A stretch of DNA of 64,000 bases from the NCBI GenBank assembly GCA_031370005.1, contig JANMPT010000024.1, positions 64,001 to 128,000 on the forward strand, read 5' to 3'. Each line of letters starts with the position of its first letter. Positions within the stretch are counted from its first letter, which is position 1. A program made the translations under genes and the position numbers. The stretch is from Bdellovibrionales bacterium (GTDB taxonomy: Bacteria; Bdellovibrionota; Bdellovibrionia; Bdellovibrionales; Bdellovibrionaceae). Positions 38,180-47,995 of this stretch are shown in pieces. Below the pieces are notes generated by a model. It saw only the letters and a program-made list of their open reading frames with translations, had not been told where the DNA came from and did no database searches.

Positions 38180-38560
38180 TTATCCAGCCATTTTTATGGA
38201 TTTAATTCTTGTTTCAATTGCATTGAAAGCTTCCGTTTCCATTCCCGATCGGTAAAGTTTTAGTGAATCACGAAGATCATCAATAACTTGAAGGATCACG
38301 CTTGTTAATTGCTTGCCCAATTCAGAACTAAGCGCACTTTCTAGTTCGTGCATAACGGTGCCAAATTTTCCAAAACTGACAGCTTGCGCACTTCCTTTCA
38401 GACAGTGCAGAGCTCTTTTAATAATATCTATGTGCTCAGGCTTTGGTGTGTTTTCATAATTAAGAAGCGCTTCTTCACAATTCGCTAGCAACTCTTCTGC
38501 CTCATTGCAAAAATACATGCGCAATTCGCGAATTAGGGAGTCATCTAATTGGTTTTTCAT
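38180..38560 (-). CDS. Stand-alone Hpt domain protein
   Basis: FCNEAEELL...RALHCLKGSA...MHELES. Confidence 0.88.
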   Translation of the reverse strand: MKNQLDDSLIRELRMYFCNEAEELLANCEEALLNYENTPKPEHIDIIKRALHCLKGSAQAVSFGKFGTVMHELESALSSELGKQLTSVILQVIDDLRDSLKLYRSGMETEAFNAIETRIKSIKMAG

Positions 38561-40641
38561 TTACATAGCCTTTTTTTAGTGTTTTGAAATGTGAGGGTGC
38601 TGTTTATTTTATTCATTACAATATAATCAAGTAGCATCACTAGGCCAAAGCGTCCCGAAAGAGCTGCCTTTGTGAATGTGCCATCTGCGAATAAGGGGCC
38701 AGGTAAAGTCTTTACAAGAAGCTCTTCGGATCTTTTAACGTCCATTGCAAAAAAAGCTGCAGCGCCAGCGTCTGTACCAATTGTAATAAGCAGAGATGAG
38801 TTGCTGAGTTCTTCGTTTGCATCAAGTTGAATATTAGAATTGGACGAGTTCAAATATCGACTGAGAGGAAGCGCATAAATATACTGGCCGTTGCAATTTA
38901 AGTAATAAGCCCCATTGGTATATGTCAGGCGACCATTTTCTATCATTTTTTTCGTCTCATTTATTTCCAAAATTTGATCATATAAAATTGCGACTTGATT
39001 TGTTGGATCGACACCTAGAATTACGGCAACTTTGATATTTACGGATTTTACTACTGGTAGCTCGATATCAAATCGTGTTCCGGTCATAGGCTCAGTTTTA
39101 ATGGCGATTTTGCCATTCATTGACTCAATAGATTTTTTTACCATGTCCATTCCGACTCCACGGCCAGAAATATCTGTAACCTTATCCGAAGTGCTAAAGC
39201 CAGAATGAAAAATCCATAATAATACTGCCTCTTGACTCATGTCCGCAGCCTGTGCTTCTGAGCAGAGCTCGCGTTCTATGAGTTTTTTCTTAATATTTAA
39301 AATATTAATGCCACGGCCGTCATCCGCTACGGATAGTTTAATTTGACTGTCTGTCAATTGAAGCGAGATTGTTAAAGTTGCTTCTTCGGCTTTCCCTGTT
39401 TGGATTCTTTCCGCTGGTGGCTCAATGCCATGGTCCATTGAGTTCCGAATAAGATGTACGAGGGAGTCCGCAAGCGCTTTTGCAATATTATAATCTAGCA
39501 AGAGCGATTCGCCTTCAATTTTGAGTTGAACTTTTTTGTTCATTTTAAGGGCGGTATCTCGCACCATCCGCTTTAATGGCTTTAATAAGTCTGCAAAAGC
39601 TACTTTTTTTAGATCCGAGGCCTTATTTTGTAAAAATGAATTTTCCTTCTGAATTTCATCTAAATACTCAACTATACTCAGCAGATTTTTTTCATTTGGA
39701 TATTTTTCAATCAATATTTCTGTTTTTTGCACAAGATAGTTTCGTAAAATCGTTAAATTCCCACTATGCTCAATAAACTCCCCTAAAACCTCAGAGCTAA
39801 CAGATATTTTATGATTGGTCTTCGGCGCCTCGTCCTTTTTTTGATCAGAGCTGTCTTCAATTACATCTGGTATCATTTCCTTTTCACCAGACAGGAGAGC
39901 TCGCCAGTAGTCTGCATTATAATCAGGTGTTTTTCCGAGAATGATATCCTCAAACATCATGTGCATCTGTTCGCATGCCTGGAGTAGACTTGTAAACAGA
40001 TAAATGGGTGTTTTCATATTTTGATTGCTAATTTTAGCAATGCTGTCTTCACAGTCGTGCGAAAAGCTAGAGATAGAATTTAGCCCGATACAGGCCGCTG
40101 TACCTTTGATTGTGTGCAAGGCACGGCAAACCCCGCTTAAAATATCTTTGTTGTCTGGTTCTGTCTCTAGCTGAAGAAGAAGGTTTTCCATTTCCTCAAG
40201 TTTCGAGGAGGCCTCTTCGACAAAGCCGAGCATCATCTCGCGGGATTCCTTATAGGCAGTGGCATGGTTGGAGTGGGATCCTCGAACGCAATTTTGTAAT
40301 GTTTGAAGGTCGAATGGTTTTGAATAAATTCCGGAAATTTTTGATTTTATGTCCTCAGAGATAGTTTCTGGGGAGAGGTATCCAGAAATTAGCACAAAGG
40401 GAATACTGCTAAACTCAGGGGACAGTAAACTTATTAGTTCAAAGCCATTTATTTCGGGCATATTATAGTCACACAAGATCAGGCAGATTTTTCGTGAGTG
40501 GCTTTTTATATACTCTAATGCCTGTGTAGGTGAGCTCATTGTAATAGGCCTGTAGCCCCACTTTTCAATCCACTGCTTATAGACTTCAAGAATGGCTATT
40601 TCATCGTCAATGCAAAGTATTTCAAAAGAATCGGTATCCAT
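38557..40641 (-). CDS. Hybrid REC-CheA-like histidine kinase (REC, Hpt, dimerisation, HATPase, degenerate CheW-like domain)
   Basis: DDE/CDYNMP/KP receiver; RALHTIKG; HLIRNSMDHGIE, DDGRG, SGRGVGMDMV. Confidence 0.88.
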   Translation of the reverse strand: MDTDSFEILCIDDEIAILEVYKQWIEKWGYRPITMSSPTQALEYIKSHSRKICLILCDYNMPEINGFELISLLSPEFSSIPFVLISGYLSPETISEDIKSKISGIYSKPFDLQTLQNCVRGSHSNHATAYKESREMMLGFVEEASSKLEEMENLLLQLETEPDNKDILSGVCRALHTIKGTAACIGLNSISSFSHDCEDSIAKISNQNMKTPIYLFTSLLQACEQMHMMFEDIILGKTPDYNADYWRALLSGEKEMIPDVIEDSSDQKKDEAPKTNHKISVSSEVLGEFIEHSGNLTILRNYLVQKTEILIEKYPNEKNLLSIVEYLDEIQKENSFLQNKASDLKKVAFADLLKPLKRMVRDTALKMNKKVQLKIEGESLLLDYNIAKALADSLVHLIRNSMDHGIEPPAERIQTGKAEEATLTISLQLTDSQIKLSVADDGRGINILNIKKKLIERELCSEAQAADMSQEAVLLWIFHSGFSTSDKVTDISGRGVGMDMVKKSIESMNGKIAIKTEPMTGTRFDIELPVVKSVNIKVAVILGVDPTNQVAILYDQILEINETKKMIENGRLTYTNGAYYLNCNGQYIYALPLSRYLNSSNSNIQLDANEELSNSSLLITIGTDAGAAAFFAMDVKRSEELLVKTLPGPLFADGTFTKAALSGRFGLVMLLDYIVMNKINSTLTFQNTKKRLCK

Positions 40642-40673
40642 TGAGCCCTTCCTAAAACCTAATAAATATGCAA

Positions 40674-40825
40674 CTTATCGGTTAAGGGGCAGAATCTGTA
40701 AAGCACTTTTTTTAAACAAACTAAATTCACTTTAAATTGATACGTTTCATAGTGCGGCTGTCTCTTAACAAAACATAAATATTTAAATAAAGCATGTTTA
40801 GAATTTTTTTACTCCTTCCGATAAG
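40674..40825. promoter_or_regulatory. Back-to-back sigma28 (FliA)-like promoters
   Basis: CCGATAAG on the minus strand (40674-40681) toward cheA-like and on the plus strand (40818-40825) toward the response regulator; -35 boxes imperfect (TTAC, TTAG). Confidence 0.55.
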
Positions 40826-40899
40826 CTATACAAGTTCGTTATTTATAGTAAAAATCAGATATCGATCAAAAGTCGAGTTGCTTCAAAGAGGGGGAGTCG

Positions 40900-41445
40900 T
40901 TGTCTAAGCCAAAATTGCTAATTGTTGATGATGAAGTTGAAATTAGAAGCTCAATTCGGTTTTTCACACAAAATGATTTTGATGTTGTTGAGGCAAGTAA
41001 TGGGCTCGAAGCCCTCCAGATCATTAATAATGAGCCGATTGACCTTTTGCTTTCAGATTACAATATGCCAAATATGGATGGTTTGGAGCTACTCAAAATG
41101 CTCATTGAGAAGGACCATTGTATTCCGGTGATTTGGCTTACGGGAAGGGGCTCGGCGGAGCTTTGTCGATCCACTTGGGCTCTAGGGGTTTATGAGTACC
41201 TTGAAAAACCCTTTAAAGCCAATGAACTGATTCAGTGCTTAAAGGGTGCTGTAGATTTCAAAGATACATATTCAGAAATTAGAAAAATTCGAAGTATCTC
41301 AAAAAAACTATTTGAAGAGCCCAATCTTATTTTTAGCGCGAAAAGCTATCGGCAATTTCATGAGGCGTGTCTGTTGCGCGGGATTTCTGTATCAACAGCA
41401 ATGAGTGAGTTGGTCGAAGAGTATTTAAAGAAGGGTGCTAGTTGA
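40900..41445 (+). CDS. Response regulator, REC plus short C-terminal ribbon-helix-helix-like output
   Basis: VDDE, SDYNMP, TG, KPF; tail NLIFSAKSYRQFHEACLLRGISVSTAMSELVEEYL. Confidence 0.8.
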   Translation: MSKPKLLIVDDEVEIRSSIRFFTQNDFDVVEASNGLEALQIINNEPIDLLLSDYNMPNMDGLELLKMLIEKDHCIPVIWLTGRGSAELCRSTWALGVYEYLEKPFKANELIQCLKGAVDFKDTYSEIRKIRSISKKLFEEPNLIFSAKSYRQFHEACLLRGISVSTAMSELVEEYLKKGAS

Positions 41446-42509
41446 TGTTGAGCCGAAGATTGGTGGATTATTTTCAATTCCCATTGGCCTTGCTTGATGG
41501 AAATGCTCGTGTGATTCAGGCTAATTCTAGTTGGGTGGATGCTATGAATATTTTAGAAGGCGAGTATGCCCATAAATACATCAATTTGAGTCCTAGCCCC
41601 ACTTTAGCCAAGACTGAGGACTATTGGCAGCAAGTGGCAAGCCAGTTGCCAGAGGCGGGCGAAAAGCTGTCGCTTATACATCAACAACCAGGGCATTTGA
41701 GCCTTCTTCTAAGTAAAGTTAAGTTTGATCAAATATTATTTTTCTGGGCCCGACCGGCAATTGAGACCGACTTATATGGTGATACAAATAGATTGGCACG
41801 GGAAAAACGGCTTCATGAAATGGGTGAAATGGCCGCCGGAGTTGCTCATGAAATTACGAATCCTTTAACAGTCATCGCTGCAAAAGCGTCAATACTGGAA
41901 TATATGATGAAGGAAGGTGATGATGAGGGCAATTCTGAAGTTCTAAAGATCACTCAAGTAATCACCCATCAGTGTCATCGAATTACAAAGATTGTGCGAG
42001 CAATGAGAACCTTTAGCCGAGACGGAGCTTTTGACCCTGTTGTGGCCATGGCGATACGTCCGCTAATTGATGAAGCAATAACCCTTTGTGTAGAGAAATC
42101 CCGCCTAAAGGGAACCAAGTTTGAAGTAGAGACATTGGACTCTGAGTATCAAGTCATGTGTCGCCCTATTCACATTGTGCAGATTTTGGTCAATTTATTT
42201 AACAATGCAATAGATGCCACGGATAGTGTTCTTTTGCCTAAAGTGATCGTGGCCTTTCAGAAATCCGAGGATTTTTTGGAAATTCAGACTTTGGATAACG
42301 GCACAGGGGTTCCAGAAGAAATTGCTGATAAAATTTTCAACCCTTTTTATACAACAAAGGAAGTTGGAAAGGGGACGGGCTTGGGCCTGAGTTTGTCTCT
42401 GCGTTTGAGTCAAATCAGTGGAGGAAATTTGTTCTTGGATCGAAAACAGGGAAAAAGCTGTTTTACACTAAGACTTCCACTCGCGGCATCGCTTAAGATA
42501 GTAAAATAA
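41442..42509 (+). CDS. Cytoplasmic PAS-like sensor histidine kinase (NtrB-like)
   Basis: No TM; LLDGNARVIQAN PAS start; AHEITNPL, NLFNNA, DNGTG, GTGLGL. Confidence 0.9.
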   Translation: MMLSRRLVDYFQFPLALLDGNARVIQANSSWVDAMNILEGEYAHKYINLSPSPTLAKTEDYWQQVASQLPEAGEKLSLIHQQPGHLSLLLSKVKFDQILFFWARPAIETDLYGDTNRLAREKRLHEMGEMAAGVAHEITNPLTVIAAKASILEYMMKEGDDEGNSEVLKITQVITHQCHRITKIVRAMRTFSRDGAFDPVVAMAIRPLIDEAITLCVEKSRLKGTKFEVETLDSEYQVMCRPIHIVQILVNLFNNAIDATDSVLLPKVIVAFQKSEDFLEIQTLDNGTGVPEEIADKIFNPFYTTKEVGKGTGLGLSLSLRLSQISGGNLFLDRKQGKSCFTLRLPLAASLKIVK

Positions 42510-42526
42510 TTTATCGGAGGTTTGTC

Positions 42527-43039
42527 ATGAGACTGAAAAAGCAGAATGTGAGTATTGTTCGTCCGGAAGACTATGATTTAGAGGCCGAAAGAGCCGCTGT
42601 GATAAAGTTTATGCAGGAAAATGGCCTTGAGGTCGATGCAGAGTTCATACGCCAAATCACCTTAGGAGATATTGTTGAAGTATATTCCGTCCCGGAAAAT
42701 ACACAGATTTATCGAAACACTGAATTCATTAAGCACTGCTCTTATACTACAGAGCAAATGGCGACAATCCCCTTTCCAAAATTATTCTGGAGATCCGAGG
42801 ATGACCACGTTACATTAATGCATAGGGCCTCTCAAGTAGTGTCTACGGAGAAAAAGTGTGTTCCCTGGGATGTTGGGAATCACCAGCTTGTAGAATCATT
42901 ACATCCTAAAAAACGTACTTTTGAAATTCAAATGGGAGTGATCGCCCCCTGCTTTGAGCTTAAAACCCAGGCACGAAGAGCCTGGGCTTCAACTTTGAAA
43001 GTGAGCTTTATTTTTGAGTGGGGAGATGACTTAACTTAA
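42527..43039 (+). CDS. Stand-alone PAS-like hypothetical protein
   Basis: SD GGAGG; DIVEVY...QIYRNTEFIKHCSYTTEQM...LFWR resembles the PAS N-x-x-F...GY..EE pattern. Confidence 0.5.
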   Translation: MRLKKQNVSIVRPEDYDLEAERAAVIKFMQENGLEVDAEFIRQITLGDIVEVYSVPENTQIYRNTEFIKHCSYTTEQMATIPFPKLFWRSEDDHVTLMHRASQVVSTEKKCVPWDVGNHQLVESLHPKKRTFEIQMGVIAPCFELKTQARRAWASTLKVSFIFEWGDDLT

Positions 43040-43639
43040 AGAGGCTATGTCATTCAGAAGATGCTTATAAAGAACGCAGGTCTGATCAAAGTTCTTCATA
43101 ATTTCGACTCTTTCCCCTTGAGTGCAGCTTTCGATTTGGTTGACTGCTTCTTTCACGTGGTCAGGATCATCTTCGGCGTGAACTTTTACAAACCGAATGG
43201 CTTCTGGCCCATATTTTTTCAGAACAAGCTCATACATTCCTGGGAAGGTAAGCACTGCCAGATGTTCCAGAGCCAGGATATAACCCAGTAAGTGTTTTGG
43301 ATTGCGTTGAATTTTGTAAAACTGAGGTTCCCAAAGTGCCCGGCAACTTTCTAATTCCATGAAATTTTCTCGTTTTTCGCCTAGATGCTCAAGGTCTTTA
43401 ACAGCTAAAAGGTCATGACTTTGCTCCTCACGGATATGTGAAAGACTTCGTCGATAATAGTTTTGCTCCTCCGCAGGAGACCAGCCGGCAGCAAAGGCAA
43501 GCATGCGAGTGCTATGAGTTGTATAGTAAAAACTTTGTGCAAGCCAGTTTTTATATAATTTGGAGTTGTCCCAAGGCATTTTCTCGAAGCACTTCTTGAG
43601 CTCCTCCATTTTCGAGGATAAGGGTATTTGTTGGTTCAT
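43031..43639 (-). CDS. Heme-oxygenase-like diiron oxidase (iron-containing redox enzyme; CADD/PqqC/TenA superfamily)
   Basis: HIREEQSH, LALEH and HAEDDPDH ligand set in an all-helical 202-aa protein. Confidence 0.8.
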   Translation of the reverse strand: MNQQIPLSSKMEELKKCFEKMPWDNSKLYKNWLAQSFYYTTHSTRMLAFAAGWSPAEEQNYYRRSLSHIREEQSHDLLAVKDLEHLGEKRENFMELESCRALWEPQFYKIQRNPKHLLGYILALEHLAVLTFPGMYELVLKKYGPEAIRFVKVHAEDDPDHVKEAVNQIESCTQGERVEIMKNFDQTCVLYKHLLNDIASLS

Positions 43640-44294
43640 GAGTCGGTTCCTTTCTGTGGTTAAATCTATTCCATTTTTGTATTGTCATTTCTAAGCAGTT
43701 TGGAAGTGGGGAAAGGCGAGCGGACTCTCTGGTGATTTGAGCAAAGTCCACCTCAACATTGTAGGCCTGTTTGCCTTTTGAGATAGGGATTCCTCCATGG
43801 CGATAAAAAATATTTTGAGTCCCGCGGTTATTTCGAAAATATCCTAAAATTCGTTTTGCAGAACTTTCCATGAGGCGTAAAACTGAAAAGCCAATTAGTA
43901 GTTCAGATATGGGTAGGTCGGTCTCAGATTTTCTCCATGCAGAATCCAAGGTCATATATGTTATAATCATCGATGAACTTTCTAGCCCAATAATACTTTC
44001 GCGAACATCCTCTGGGTAATTCTCGAAATAAGACATTTTCTGGTGACTACGTTTTTCTAAATCACAAAAATGATATAATAAAAATCCGACTGGCCTATTA
44101 TTAAAAAACAGACCCCCAAGTTCCTTTGAAAGAAAATCGTCGCTGCTGAGGGTTTTTTTTGCAACGTTCAGTTCACGAAAAGTCTCGATCCAATTTTTTT
44201 CCCAGAGTTCAAAACAGCGTTCATTCAATTCTGAAAACACCCCTGGGCTTGAGGTGGAGAAATGATAAAAGTCCAAGTCAGAGATAGATTTCAA
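43551..44294 (-). CDS. GNAT-fold acyltransferase, LuxI/FeeM-like (putative)
   Basis: GLFFNNRPVGF, ITYMTLDSAWRK, ILGYFRNNRGTQNIFYRHGG; TTG at 44294 follows GGAG (ORF track start 44306). Confidence 0.55.
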   Translation of the reverse strand: MKSISDLDFYHFSTSSPGVFSELNERCFELWEKNWIETFRELNVAKKTLSSDDFLSKELGGLFFNNRPVGFLLYHFCDLEKRSHQKMSYFENYPEDVRESIIGLESSSMIITYMTLDSAWRKSETDLPISELLIGFSVLRLMESSAKRILGYFRNNRGTQNIFYRHGGIPISKGKQAYNVEVDFAQITRESARLSPLPNCLEMTIQKWNRFNHRKEPTHEPTNTLILENGGAQEVLRENALGQLQII

Positions 44295-44472
44295 TGATTG
44301 CTCCAAAAAAAGATATGTTATTTTGTGGAGAAAAGATTGTGCTATATACGTAACAAGTGGTCAATAAATTAAATTAAACAAACAAATAAGATACAATTTA
44401 GTAAAATTTTATACACTCACCGCATTGAGTCGCACATGGCTACGGCAAATAAAGCTAATTTGAGAGGGGGTT

Positions 44473-44940
44473 TCACTCTTTAGTGTTTAAATTTTCAAAA
44501 TTTGCATTGCCTGTTTTAGTTTCTGTCCCATTGATTATGACATGAAAATAAATAGGAACTGATTTAACTAGCATGGCGCTGACACCGCAATATTTGGTCA
44601 TTGAAAGATCAACCGCTTTTTCAAAGAGACCATTGTCAATATTTGGACCAGTTAATGTGAAGTTAAGGTGAATTTCAGAAAAGATAACGGGATGCGTAGT
44701 TGTGGGCTCAGACTCGGCGCTGACATTGAAAGTATCAAATGAAACCTTATATTTTTTTAAAAGGCTCACGACATCCATACCGGTACAACCGCATAAACCA
44801 GCAAGAACATACTCCTTAGGGCTAGGGCCTCGATCTCTACCGCCGAACTCTTTTTTGCCATCGGTGAATTGATGATGCTCCCGCACTTGGACTTCAAACC
44901 CAATGCCTTGGATCCAATGGACCTCTGCTGTTGTTTTCAT
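44473..44940 (-). CDS. OsmC family protein
   Basis: GPSPKEYVLAGLCGCTGMDV, KYCGVS. Confidence 0.92.
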   Translation of the reverse strand: MKTTAEVHWIQGIGFEVQVREHHQFTDGKKEFGGRDRGPSPKEYVLAGLCGCTGMDVVSLLKKYKVSFDTFNVSAESEPTTTHPVIFSEIHLNFTLTGPNIDNGLFEKAVDLSMTKYCGVSAMLVKSVPIYFHVIINGTETKTGNANFENLNTKE

Positions 44941-45130
44941 TTCTTAGCTCCTTTGTAGTTCTAGCGGGCCCTTTTAAGAGAAGCCCATCATAAACCAATA
45001 TTTTACAAAGTATAGATGTGCTAAGGCATATTTTTTATTACTTTTCAGCAGAGAGTCACATAAGGGTTCCCTACTTGGGTGAGATCTAATACAATGTTAG
45101 GCTGACAGCTATCAAATTAAGGGGAGTTTT

Positions 45131-46198
45131 ATGAAAAGTGACATGATTTTTCATCAGTTATTTGAGTCTGAGTCGTCGACTTATACTTATATTATTGCAG
45201 ATGAGAAAACCAAGGAAGCTGCCATTATTGATCCTGTTCTTGAAACTGTTGATCGTGACCTTAAGCTGATTAATGAATTAGGATTAAAACTGATGTATGC
45301 ATTGGATACGCATATTCATGCAGATCACATCACTGGCGCTGGAGAAATTCGAAAAAGAACACAGGCAAAGACGGTTGTCAGTCATGAAGCAGATGTATCT
45401 TGCGTCGATATCCCATTGAAAGATGGTCAGGAGCTTTCGCTGGGCGATAAAAAAATCAAAGGAATTACAACTCCGGGGCATACGAACACCTGTATGTCAT
45501 ATTTATTTGAGGGAATGATATTTACAGGTGATGCCTTATTAATTCGTGGATGCGGAAGGACTGACTTTCAACAAGGTTCATCGGAGAAGCTCTATGAAAG
45601 TGTCCATGAAAAGCTTTTCAAGTTGCCTGACAATACCATTGTGTATCCTTGCCATGATTACAGAGGGCACAGCTCATCGACAATTGGCCTTGAGAAAAAA
45701 TTTAATCCTCGCTTGGGCGAGTCTAAATCTAAAGAAGAATTCAAGAAAATTATGTCCGAAACAAGACTTGATAGTCCAAAAAAGATTCATGAGGCAGTTC
45801 CTGCAAATATGGCCTGCGGACTGCTGAATGATTCCCGAGTTATCCACCCTCAGGTAGCTAATGGAATTCCGGAGGCGCAGTGCGAGGCCATTTTAGCTCA
45901 TCTGCCCCTGGTCGAATCAAAAAAGCTTAGACTGATTGACGTGAGACGGCCTGACGAATTCAATAGTGAGCTTGGGCATATTAAGGGTGCTGAGCTTATT
46001 ACACTTGGGCCTGAGCTAACAATTTTTCTTGAAAAAAAAGCCGATCTTAATGAAGAAATCGTTTTTATTTGCCGAAGTGGTGGTCGTTCCGGTGCGGCAA
46101 CTCAGGAGAGCATCAAGCTTGGCTACAAATATACTGTTAATATGTTGGGCGGTATGATTCGTTGGAACGAACAAAAATTTCCTGTGGAAAGATGCTAA
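45131..46198 (+). CDS. Persulfide dioxygenase (ETHE1-like MBL)-rhodanese fusion
   Basis: THIHADHITG, TPGHT, GCGRTDFQ, HDY; rhodanese IDVR...GHIKGA...CRSGGRS. Confidence 0.92.
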   Translation: MKSDMIFHQLFESESSTYTYIIADEKTKEAAIIDPVLETVDRDLKLINELGLKLMYALDTHIHADHITGAGEIRKRTQAKTVVSHEADVSCVDIPLKDGQELSLGDKKIKGITTPGHTNTCMSYLFEGMIFTGDALLIRGCGRTDFQQGSSEKLYESVHEKLFKLPDNTIVYPCHDYRGHSSSTIGLEKKFNPRLGESKSKEEFKKIMSETRLDSPKKIHEAVPANMACGLLNDSRVIHPQVANGIPEAQCEAILAHLPLVESKKLRLIDVRRPDEFNSELGHIKGAELITLGPELTIFLEKKADLNEEIVFICRSGGRSGAATQESIKLGYKYTVNMLGGMIRWNEQKFPVERC

Positions 46199-46225
46199 AA
46201 TCAAAGCTCATGGTCGTGTAAAATA

Positions 46226-46747
46226 ATGAGGCACATATTTAACTTTTTAAAGTCGAACTTATTTAACAGCATTCTTATTATTTTTCTAATATATGTTGCA
46301 GCATTGCGAGTTCCGACAATTATGAAAATGTATGAGGCGCAAGGGGAGCCGGCGCCTTCGGCTAGCATTGTCGATCTAACAGGACAGAATATTTTAATTC
46401 CGCGTCATCAAAAACAGGTCCTCGTTTTTTGGGCGACGTGGTGCGGTCCTTGTAGGATCGAGCTCGGCAGAATCAACAGAATGATAATAAAAAACGAAAT
46501 CAATGCGAATGATATTCTTGCAGTTTCTATTTCTGAAGATCCAAAAACAGTTACTGCTTTTGTAAGGGAGCATGAGTATCATTTCCAAGTGGCTGTTGAT
46601 GAAACAGGAAAGCTTGCAAGGCTATATAAGGTATTTGGAACTCCCACGATACTTCTAATAGATCAAGATGGCAAAGTGAACTGGATGACAACGGGGCTGA
46701 GTCCCGCCCTTGAATTTAGACTCAAATCATTTTTAATCAAACAATAA
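46226..46747 (+). CDS. TlpA-family thiol:disulfide oxidoreductase
   Basis: N-terminal TM, FWATWCGPC, GTP. Confidence 0.9.
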   Translation: MRHIFNFLKSNLFNSILIIFLIYVAALRVPTIMKMYEAQGEPAPSASIVDLTGQNILIPRHQKQVLVFWATWCGPCRIELGRINRMIIKNEINANDILAVSISEDPKTVTAFVREHEYHFQVAVDETGKLARLYKVFGTPTILLIDQDGKVNWMTTGLSPALEFRLKSFLIKQ

Positions 46748-46873
46748 GACAAATTTCGTATTACTAAAAAATATCATTGTATATTTATTAAATTGAAATT
46801 GAGCTTTCAAGCCTTTTGCGAGATGAATGGGATCTGAGCATATGCTCGGAATTGCCAAAAATAAGGAGGCAGC

Positions 46874-47416
46874 ATGAAGAAGTTTTTAGTAATGACCATC
46901 GTGTCCGTAATTTCAGCGGGCGCTTTTGCAGCAGGTTACACACCAATGAATATTGTTGAGAAATCATCTTATCAGTTGGCAGGCTTAGTCACTAAGGGAA
47001 AAATCGATGCAAGTTTTCTTACGGATGTAAATCATTTAACAGTGTCCTCTGATGCTAGCGGATTTCACGTTCAGATGACCTCGCCAGCGACGACTCCGGA
47101 CGCGGTGAATACCTTGGATATCACTTTTGACACAAACGGAAAGGCAACCAGCTTTTCTTCGAACTTTGTTGCGCGCTTTTCACAGGGACCTATTTTTGAA
47201 AAGACCAATGCAGCAACGATCTTGGATCTTTGTGCAGAAGCATTCGTTGATCACTTATCCGAGTCCCAAGATAACCTCTTTGTTGCTCAAAACGTAGAGA
47301 GTATTGATCTCGGTGTTGAACAAGGTGGATTCCTCATTTTGGTTCACCTGAAAAATGCACAAGTTTACCAGGTACACATGGATGCAACGGGCAAAGTTAT
47401 TTCCAAAGGATTCTAA
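46874..47416 (+). CDS. Hypothetical exported protein with internal duplication
   Basis: SD AAGGAGG, signal AFA; the two halves end in ITFDTNGK and VHMDATGK. Confidence 0.65.
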   Translation: MKKFLVMTIVSVISAGAFAAGYTPMNIVEKSSYQLAGLVTKGKIDASFLTDVNHLTVSSDASGFHVQMTSPATTPDAVNTLDITFDTNGKATSFSSNFVARFSQGPIFEKTNAATILDLCAEAFVDHLSESQDNLFVAQNVESIDLGVEQGGFLILVHLKNAQVYQVHMDATGKVISKGF

Positions 47417-47419
47417 AAA

Positions 47420-47995
47420 ATGAAAACGGTTCAGAGCTTCGCAGTCATTGCTTTACTAACTTTAGGTCTGCGTAGTTTTGCGCAAGACCAAGAGGCTTCA
47501 GTTCAGAATGGTCATGTAGAGTTCACCGCCGTCGGTAAACCAGCGATGTTGAAAATCCACGGAAAGTCTCTTGGTCCCACGGGAAAAATCAGTGTGAGCA
47601 AGGGGCGAATTTCGGGCGTTTTAAAGTTGGAGCTCAAGGGCATTGCGACAGGAATTGATCTGCGCGACGAACATATGAAAAAGAAGTATCTTCAGGTGGA
47701 TCTCTTTCCTGTGGCAGAGCTTTTGATTAAAGATATGGATGTTAATGTAGGTAAATTTTCTGATTTTAGTGGCACATTGAAAGATCAAAATTTTACCGGC
47801 GACCTGACTCTTCACGGAGTGAGGAAGTCGATTCATGGCGTTTATGAGGTACAGTCCGAGGGAAGCCTATTAAAGATACATGCGACTTATCAGTTTAAAT
47901 TATCAGATTTCAATATTGAGATTCCTTCTTATGCAGGCATTAAGGTGGCGGATAGTGTTACTGTGGAGACCTCCTTTGAGGTGCCAAAAAAATGA
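47420..47995 (+). CDS. YceI family polyisoprenoid-binding protein
   Basis: TGIDLRDEHM, GDLTLHGV, SDFNI. Confidence 0.9.
   Translation: MKTVQSFAVIALLTLGLRSFAQDQEASVQNGHVEFTAVGKPAMLKIHGKSLGPTGKISVSKGRISGVLKLELKGIATGIDLRDEHMKKKYLQVDLFPVAELLIKDMDVNVGKFSDFSGTLKDQNFTGDLTLHGVRKSIHGVYEVQSEGSLLKIHATYQFKLSDFNIEIPSYAGIKVADSVTVETSFEVPKK

Follow-up and report, generated by a model that had tools for sequence, protein, structure and literature searches.

What is encoded at a locus where the genes for a predicted acyltransferase and a predicted oxidase converge on that of a small sensor protein? The question is raised by the window analyzed here, a 64,000-nucleotide stretch of Bdellovibrionales bacterium DNA (assembly GCA_031370005.1, contig JANMPT010000024.1, positions 64,001 to 128,000), in which five genes form a compact unit. 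We consider it somewhat probable that this unit is a synthase-receptor signaling circuit whose product is not an N-acyl-homoserine lactone (AHL). In such a circuit, a LuxI-fold acyltransferase would acylate an amine, probably not homoserine derived from S-adenosylmethionine (SAM), and a diiron oxidase would desaturate or hydroxylate the acyl-amide (or its acyl donor). Once released, the oxidized acyl-amide would be bound by the facing PAS protein, which would pass the signal to a co-encoded kinase and then to a ribbon-helix-helix (RHH) response regulator, so that the product could serve the predator as a cue to density or self during its life cycle. The evidence consists of the genes themselves, their predicted folds, an intact diiron ligand set, linkage throughout the phylum Bdellovibrionota and the exchange of both tailoring enzyme and readout between loci. 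The cassette is real, conserved and uncharacterized: no description of the gene set, nor of any self-signal in these predators, was found in the literature searched, where supplements could hold the genes as unnamed rows of Bdellovibrio expression or mutant tables. A phylogenomic study reported that no AHL synthases are predicted in Bdellovibrionota and suggested that quorum regulation may fall to other factors (bioRxiv 10.1101/2020.11.01.364414).

The predicted signal synthase, a GCN5-related N-acetyltransferase (GNAT) fold protein of an unnamed family, lies on the minus strand at 43551..44294; its open frame spans 43551-44306, and a TTG at 44294 behind GGAG is the likely start, giving 247 amino acids. 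The gene overlaps by 89 bp that of the predicted tailoring enzyme, a heme-oxygenase-like diiron oxidase (HDO) of 202 amino acids (43031..43639, minus strand), and the last ~30 residues of the GNAT protein (217-247), encoded in this overlap, are disordered in its structural model. The end of the HDO gene in turn overlaps by 9 bp (43031-43039) the end of the convergent gene for the predicted receptor, a stand-alone short PAS-fold protein of 170 amino acids (42527..43039, plus strand). Upstream of the PAS gene on the same strand are the predicted DNA-binding output, a response regulator of 181 amino acids with a receiver and an RHH-like C-terminal domain (40900..41445), and the predicted PAS partner, a soluble histidine kinase of 355 amino acids with HisKA and HATPase domains in Pfam (41442..42509); these two genes overlap by 4 bp, and 17 bp separate the kinase stop from the PAS start. 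A first-pass annotation of the sequence had described three of these open reading frames with their motifs and the convergence on a PAS protein that ends a regulator-kinase operon, and all of this is present in the sequence. The GNAT, HDO and PAS genes are each single-copy in the source genome (99.8% complete).

The GNAT fold claimed in that annotation for the first enzyme is borne out by an AlphaFold (AF2) model (predicted local distance difference test [pLDDT], 86.6). Its best whole-length structural match is the AHL synthase RpaI (VIA Z 16.3, root mean square deviation [rmsd] 3.1, 194 residues aligned), with MesI and LasI at 13.9 and FeeM at 13.5, and Foldseek ranks FeeM first (E = 1.5e-5) and also matches EsaI and BjaI. 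Membership in either family was not found by sequence. The protein matches 0 Pfam families at E ≤ 1, Autoind_synth (PF00765) included, and no NCBIfam family; none of 52 GNAT relatives matched PF00765 at E ≤ 0.01, and searches of PDB sequences with GNAT profiles gave no match. A PF00765 profile search of the source genome also found no match, a weak negative given that its positive control was silent too. The window GNAT is not among the nine matches to FeeM (PF21926) in its genome; the best relative scores 18 bits against a cut-off of 27, one of the 52 members matches at E = 0.0026, and weak FeeM and Acetyltransf_5 matches occur in 2/52. The nine genomic FeeM-domain matches over the cut-off (L072-L080, on contigs C99, C13, C81, C94, C2, C122 and C120) are open frames of 284-463 amino acids and form an expanded family of their own, separate from the GNAT cassette.

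Conservation within the family indicates which parts of a LuxI-like active site may have been kept. Among 126 distant members, the V-x-P-x-W-R stretch typical of GNAT proteins is retained (98% for R121), as is a basic patch made up of R154 (98%) and R/K157 (92%); both lie in what is the acyl-carrier-binding region of LuxI enzymes (PMC4234381, in excerpt). The family also conserves an aromatic set (Y/F28, W31, W35, F54, Y89, F90) together with D52, R121, R154 and R157, and it keeps the D-x-F core of the LuxI E-x-D-x-F/Y-D motif (D52, 91%; F54, 90%). In an hhalign comparison with nine plasmid LuxI proteins, whose alignment probability of 20% makes the register tentative, other LuxI-invariant residues (9/9) are replaced: the N-terminal Arg, the Trp and the second Asp align with W31, E41/L42 and L55/S56, the strand Arg of RL with L72-Y74 and the Arg of SRF with Y113, Phe is replaced by W35, and Glu is also lost. 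We read the enzyme as keeping an acyl-thioester site and as having a changed amine site. With most invariant LuxI residues lost, the enzyme probably makes something other than an AHL, which lends support to the "non-AHL" label of the earlier annotation.

The second enzyme carries the complete diiron ligand set attributed to it. It matches PF14518 (E = 3.9e-8; 33.7 bits against a cut-off of 28.9), and candidate iron ligands E72, H75, E125, H154, D158 and H161 (ExxH / E / HxxxDxxH) are invariant in 51/51 relatives; together they make up the 3His/3carboxylate arrangement of HDOs (PMC13108848, in excerpt). The single sequence matches structure 3dde (E = 7.7e-8), and a 33-sequence profile matches 3dde at 5.6e-21, MboA at 1.8e-6, BesC at 0.092 and UndA at 0.14. 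The first-pass annotation was thus right to call the enzyme an HDO, but its list of relatives (UndA, BesC, SznF and CADD) omitted the desaturase/acetylenase MboA, which by profile score is the nearest characterized HDO. MboA desaturates a side chain to give an alkene and an alkyne, chemistry for which the other known catalysts are membrane desaturase-like enzymes (PMC13185094, in excerpt). At some cassette loci, the alternative partner of the GNAT is a membrane desaturase-like protein with three His boxes; this desaturase is present at 9 of the 12 GNAT copies that lack an HDO, and at the same-genus loci L030 and L032 the two enzymes are swapped in place. Because MboA is nearest to the HDO and a desaturase-like protein can take its place, desaturation or hydroxylation is the likeliest oxidase step, and acylation followed by O2-dependent desaturation has a precedent in TyzA/TyzC (PMC10404671, in excerpt). 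Decarboxylation, with UndA/UndB as precedent (PMC11204201, in excerpt), is possible, and a UndA-like reaction was considered and set aside on the profile E values given above. A second desaturase subgroup (L041:937-1914, L044:875-1936), distinct from the main one, resembles the hydroxylase GntB (E = 1e-43 to 1e-47, below the cut-off). An HDO match on a Nostoc plasmid has no annotated cassette around it.

For the third protein, the proposed PAS fold is recovered in an AF2 model (pLDDT 87.7) that matches PAS structures (VIA Z 10.6, rmsd 2.4, 106 residues aligned), with PAS/LOV domains making up nearly all of the top 50 rows and cofactor-binding LOV/NifL domains among the top matches. Foldseek likewise returns PAS/LOV matches, and Atlas places the protein with PAS/PYP/MEKHLA clusters at 0.94-0.95. 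It has no Pfam family near the cut-off and no NCBIfam family, and a PDB sequence search with the PAS profile gave weak hERG PAS matches only. A PYP-type chromophore role, suggested by the Atlas matches, was judged unlikely on topology, as the conserved C71 lies in an early N-x-x-F...Y stretch. The common form of this PAS family is ~240 amino acids long and carries an extra ~70-residue N-terminal part, which is missing from the short form in the window. The window form also lacks a linked XRE regulator, which suggests that the N-terminal part serves XRE, the kinase being the partner of the short form. An XRE partner acting in trans on the window PAS is possible; the source genome holds XRE genes of the cassette kind elsewhere (five strong matches).

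The kinase is soluble, with no membrane helix predicted from hydropathy, and its N-terminal ~110 residues are fast-evolving. It stands directly 5' of the short PAS gene in the 7/9 window-type genome loci that carry the full triad, at L009, another of the nine, and in 5/7 metagenome loci. The regulator matches Response_reg (E = 4.7e-26) and, at E = 0.17, ParG in Pfam; a four-sequence profile of its tail matches ParG 1p94 at E = 1.1e-4 and Arc at 0.88, so that it resembles an RHH DNA-binding domain. This receiver-RHH type occurs only in the window and at L004, L131 and L136.

Does the arrangement recur beyond this genome? A GNAT-family profile search (785 representatives) was followed by a search with a 144-sequence GNAT profile in 61 near genomes and 251 genomes across the phylum. 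The profile matched 42/61 near genomes, and the family is present in 96/251 sampled phylum genomes and in 30/31 in the window's own family; its range outside the phylum is taken from Atlas taxa only. Loci were gathered from all 54 non-self places in near genomes, 40/118 phylum places (chosen by the author for high scores and a spread of families) and seven places with PAS only, with L012 dropped as a duplicate of L001. Genes were labeled with hidden Markov models built on those loci and spot-checked with Pfam, and neighbors were counted within 3 kb of the 80 GNAT copies flanked on each side by 3 kb or more of sequence. A diiron enzyme lies near 77/80 copies (HDO, 68; membrane desaturase, 16; both, 7), a member of the window's PAS family near 67/80 and both near 66/80. 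The triad whose recurrence across Bdellovibrionota the first-pass annotation proposed to check does recur, and its synthase-next-to-sensor logic gains support. Chance would not produce this linkage, since a whole-genome search found 51 PAS-family places in 61 genomes, under 1% per 7-kb interval. The linkage persists through 47 gene orders among 101 GNAT copies, and three proteins fuse GNAT to HDO (P0029, P0060 and P0177). A separate fusion, P0185 (790 amino acids), joins GNAT to a flavin-dependent oxidoreductase. Presence is patchy, with 1 to 4 divergent GNAT copies per genome.

The window layout is itself conserved. Seven of the nine window-type genome loci (Bdellovibrio, Bdellovibrionaceae, Pseudobdellovibrionaceae) have GNAT-HDO facing short PAS-kinase, with the regulator beyond, and at L003 the contig ends after GNAT-HDO. 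Five of seven metagenome loci carry GNAT, HDO, PAS and kinase in window order; the others are a 1-kb contig with PAS-HDO and a 1.6-kb contig on which GNAT and PAS diverge. Since the genes flanking window-type loci differ from those of the window, the unit moves as a block. In an unrooted FastTree phylogeny, which carried long-branch warnings and is used for no order of events, window-type GNATs group together (support 98) next to long-PAS loci, and one more short-PAS-kinase locus (L121) lies elsewhere on the tree. A complete XRE/GNAT/HDO/PAS cassette is also found on a plasmid of a cultured strain, pBdHM1 of Bdellovibrio sp. HM001 (L138; AP029175.1, 84-2393), as BdHM001_36590-36560, all annotated as hypothetical. 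The annotated start of the HM001 GNAT looks too late, as the open frame runs on upstream.

What changes from locus to locus is the readout. Some sensor is present at 75/80 GNAT copies: PAS with a small XRE regulator at 37, PAS without XRE within 3 kb at 23, short PAS with kinase at 7 and a conserved multi-membrane sensor at 8 (seven kinases, one stand-alone), leaving 5 with none. The multi-membrane sensor occurs in 8/13 loci without PAS and 0/67 with PAS, and its distribution needs at least four changes on the GNAT tree. It sits beside GNAT-HDO at L021, L022, L091, L098, L102, L106 and L118 and at L094:7359-8129, on kinases of ~465 amino acids and once as a stand-alone protein beside an XRE protein; the kinase variant has up to seven helices predicted from hydropathy, and the sensor domain has no Pfam match in the six scanned. 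At L025:6422-7507, XRE (HTH_3) is fused to a long PAS, a one-component receptor form. Where loci share a chromosomal site, the synthase and PAS have changed more quickly than the regulator, the pattern to be expected if signal and receptor drift in specificity as a pair: identities are 62% for GNAT, 43% for PAS and 99% for XRE between L030 and L032, 25%, 26% and 50% for GNAT, PAS and regulator between L013 and L036 (flanks, 46-85%) and 56%, 61% and 80% for GNAT, PAS and response regulator between L006 and L007.

Several observations weigh against a signaling circuit. A GNAT fold by itself shows no function, many ordinary acetyltransferases reach Z 13-15 with the GNAT model, and the match of the family profile to the nine LuxI proteins is weak. 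A strict equivalence of HDO and desaturase was rejected, as the two occur together at seven loci, and their trade on the tree (~4 versus 0 informative pairs, median p = 0.125) is not significant; neither is that between PAS and membrane sensor (independent pairs 2 versus 0, p = 0.5). Related loci share kinship, so that the counts are not independent. Accessory genes often diverge fast, and the close strains at L109/L111 show none (92-100%). Regulator type and orientation beside the kinase vary among window-type loci, and orphans exist, both GNAT alone (L108, L110) and PAS alone (L065-L068, L070). L009 keeps PAS-kinase-regulator although a deletion breaks GNAT and removes most of HDO; it is possibly a listener-only locus or an assembly error. 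The deletion is internal and fuses a GNAT fragment to the HDO end (L009:6137-6493). Finally, a regulated metabolite cluster with pathway-specific regulators predicts much of the same pattern.

That last explanation is the most serious alternative, and we regard it as unlikely. It would make the locus a small specialized-metabolite cluster for an antimicrobial, prey-manipulating or surface-active acyl-amide, in which PAS, kinase and XRE merely regulate and sense an intermediate or an outside cue (prey, oxygen, redox), with no cell-to-cell signaling. An acyltransferase and oxidase pair of this kind, TyzA and TyzC, gives an acyl-amino-acid product (PMC10404671, in excerpt), and the N-acyl dehydrotyrosine stieleriacines are a similar one (PMC7293339, in excerpt); the cofactor-binding LOV/NifL domains among the top matches of the PAS model also count in its favor. 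Some loci also carry extra tailoring genes: methyltransferases at L090:3465-4343 and L107:6389-7291, two desaturases with a flavin (halogenase-like) enzyme at L099:725-4045 and, at L031:3398-12228, tandem duplicate cassettes that each follow an AMP-binding-like gene (weak Pfam match) in a genome with four copies, hinting at a dedicated acyl-CoA donor. However, no transporter, resistance gene or larger pathway recurs in the neighbor clusters of L001-L071, three different readouts occupy the same slot, and PAS diverges together with the synthase while the regulator stays conserved. A signal is favored because there is no such recurring exporter or resistance gene, because a sensor accompanies 75 of the 80 copies and because GNAT and PAS outpace the regulator.

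Less probable still, and in our view improbable, is a highly divergent SAM-using LuxI that makes an AHL with a diiron-modified acyl chain, read by PAS instead of LuxR. RpaI as best whole-length structural match and the retained D-x-F core would be expected of such an enzyme, and many luxI/luxR pairs share the convergent, overlapping synthase-sensor layout; against it stand the replaced LuxI-invariant positions (from a low-probability alignment) and PF00765, which matches neither the protein nor, in the weak genome search with its silent control, the genome. The most doubtful alternative is a membrane aminolipid-remodeling unit. In it, an N-acyl amino-acid lipid would be made by the GNAT and then hydroxylated or desaturated by the diiron enzyme, with the sensor adjusting this to oxygen or stress. 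The desaturase-family partner at 16/80 loci, the weak FeeM and Acetyltransf_5 matches and the GntB-like subgroup point that way, but no second (O-)acyltransferase recurs among neighbor clusters, and a signal or weapon agrees better than a structural lipid with genes that are patchily present, number 1 to 4 divergent copies per genome and include one on a plasmid.

Returning to the signaling circuit, the first-pass annotation is supported as to folds, recurrence, synthase-sensor logic and a non-AHL product, but it did not recognize the arrangement in the window as one form of a modular system found across the phylum. We tentatively speculate, with less confidence than for the circuit in the window, that Bdellovibrionota carry an undescribed phylum-wide self-signaling language that coordinates predator density or life-cycle decisions. 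A non-LuxI synthase family and swappable diiron enzymes would create strain-specific dialects of oxidized acyl-amides (desaturated, possibly alkynyl or enamide), heard through three kinds of receptor: PAS-XRE, a stand-alone PAS that works in trans through a soluble kinase (the form in the window), and the new multi-membrane sensor. The cassette offers a concrete quorum candidate that can be tested with two genes and whose synthase and sensor are both missed by Pfam. If true, the signaling reading would provide a handle on predator behavior for biocontrol and ecology and a new type of signal chemistry. It would also add a new HDO subfamily whose partner is defined, and an example of kinase control by a free PAS protein.

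The surroundings of the unit are less constant. Divergent from the regulator-kinase-PAS operon, the minus strand at window positions 38180-40641 encodes a CheA-like receiver-Hpt-ATPase protein and a stand-alone Hpt protein, genes not seen beside related loci. On the other side, 44473-47995 holds an OsmC-like gene, a metallo-beta-lactamase-rhodanese fusion, a thioredoxin-like protein and a YceI protein, which together suggest a neighborhood of redox/sulfur type; it is not conserved with the cassette. Elsewhere, PAS-only loci L065, L067 and L068 lie behind a deoC/phosphorylase operon, and GNAT-only loci L108 and L110 lie between a carboxypeptidase and a glutathione S-transferase. A sigma-70 and terminator scan of 40600-44600 gave three sites each, no excess over shuffles, and a sigma-54 scan of 97 upstream regions gave two sites scoring at least 12 against 2.3 in shuffles, no enrichment. 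A TTGACC hexamer (window 44364-44336, minus strand), found at a similar distance 5' of the GNAT start in the three closest loci (the window, L001 and L002), is a possible promoter that does not rise above chance in the scan.

How does the cassette compare with known systems? With characterized or structurally known HDOs (MboA, the uncharacterized 3DDE, UndA, BesC) it shares the 3His/3carboxylate set; the window enzyme forms its own subfamily, with a profile match to MboA of only E = 1.8e-6, its partner is an acyltransferase, and neither an MboB-like redox partner nor an ATP-grasp ligase was seen among the neighbor clusters. With FeeM-type synthases and the fee, tyz and stieleriacine clusters it shares the FeeM-like fold and, with tyz in particular, the sequence of acylation then O2-dependent desaturation shown for TyzA/TyzC (PMC10404671, in excerpt). 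In contrast to those clusters, its GNAT falls below the FeeM Pfam cut-off while the true FeeM-domain genes of the genome lie elsewhere, its oxidase is a diiron HDO and not a flavoprotein, and a dedicated sensor is attached. LuxI/LuxR systems (RpaI, BjaI, MesI, LasI, EsaI, TraI) resemble it in predicted synthase fold, in the placement of the synthase beside a ligand sensor, in the conserved basic acyl-carrier region and in the D-x-F motif core. They differ in that the cassette has no Autoind_synth match, most LuxI-invariant residues are replaced, a diiron partner is nearly constant and the sensor position is taken by a stand-alone PAS, accompanied by XRE or a kinase, or by a multi-membrane kinase; no LuxR-family gene adjoins the pair in the window (PAS, kinase, receiver-RHH regulator, OsmC) or appears among the recurring neighbors scanned at the loci (XRE, desaturase, kinase/regulator). 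Vibrio LuxM/LuxN, CqsA/CqsS and RpfF/RpfR combine a synthase with a kinase or PAS receptor. The cassette resembles them in a readout by kinase or PAS domain instead of LuxR, and the RpfR PAS structure with Burkholderia diffusible signal factor (BDSF; 6dgj) is among the structural matches of the window PAS model. It differs in its synthase, in a membrane sensor without a Pfam match and in a window PAS that is a separate protein and would act, if at all, in trans. The cassette thus encodes a candidate predator self-signal system that parallels LuxI/LuxR in its gene layout and presumed logic, but profile and residue comparisons place its synthase in neither the LuxI nor the FeeM family.

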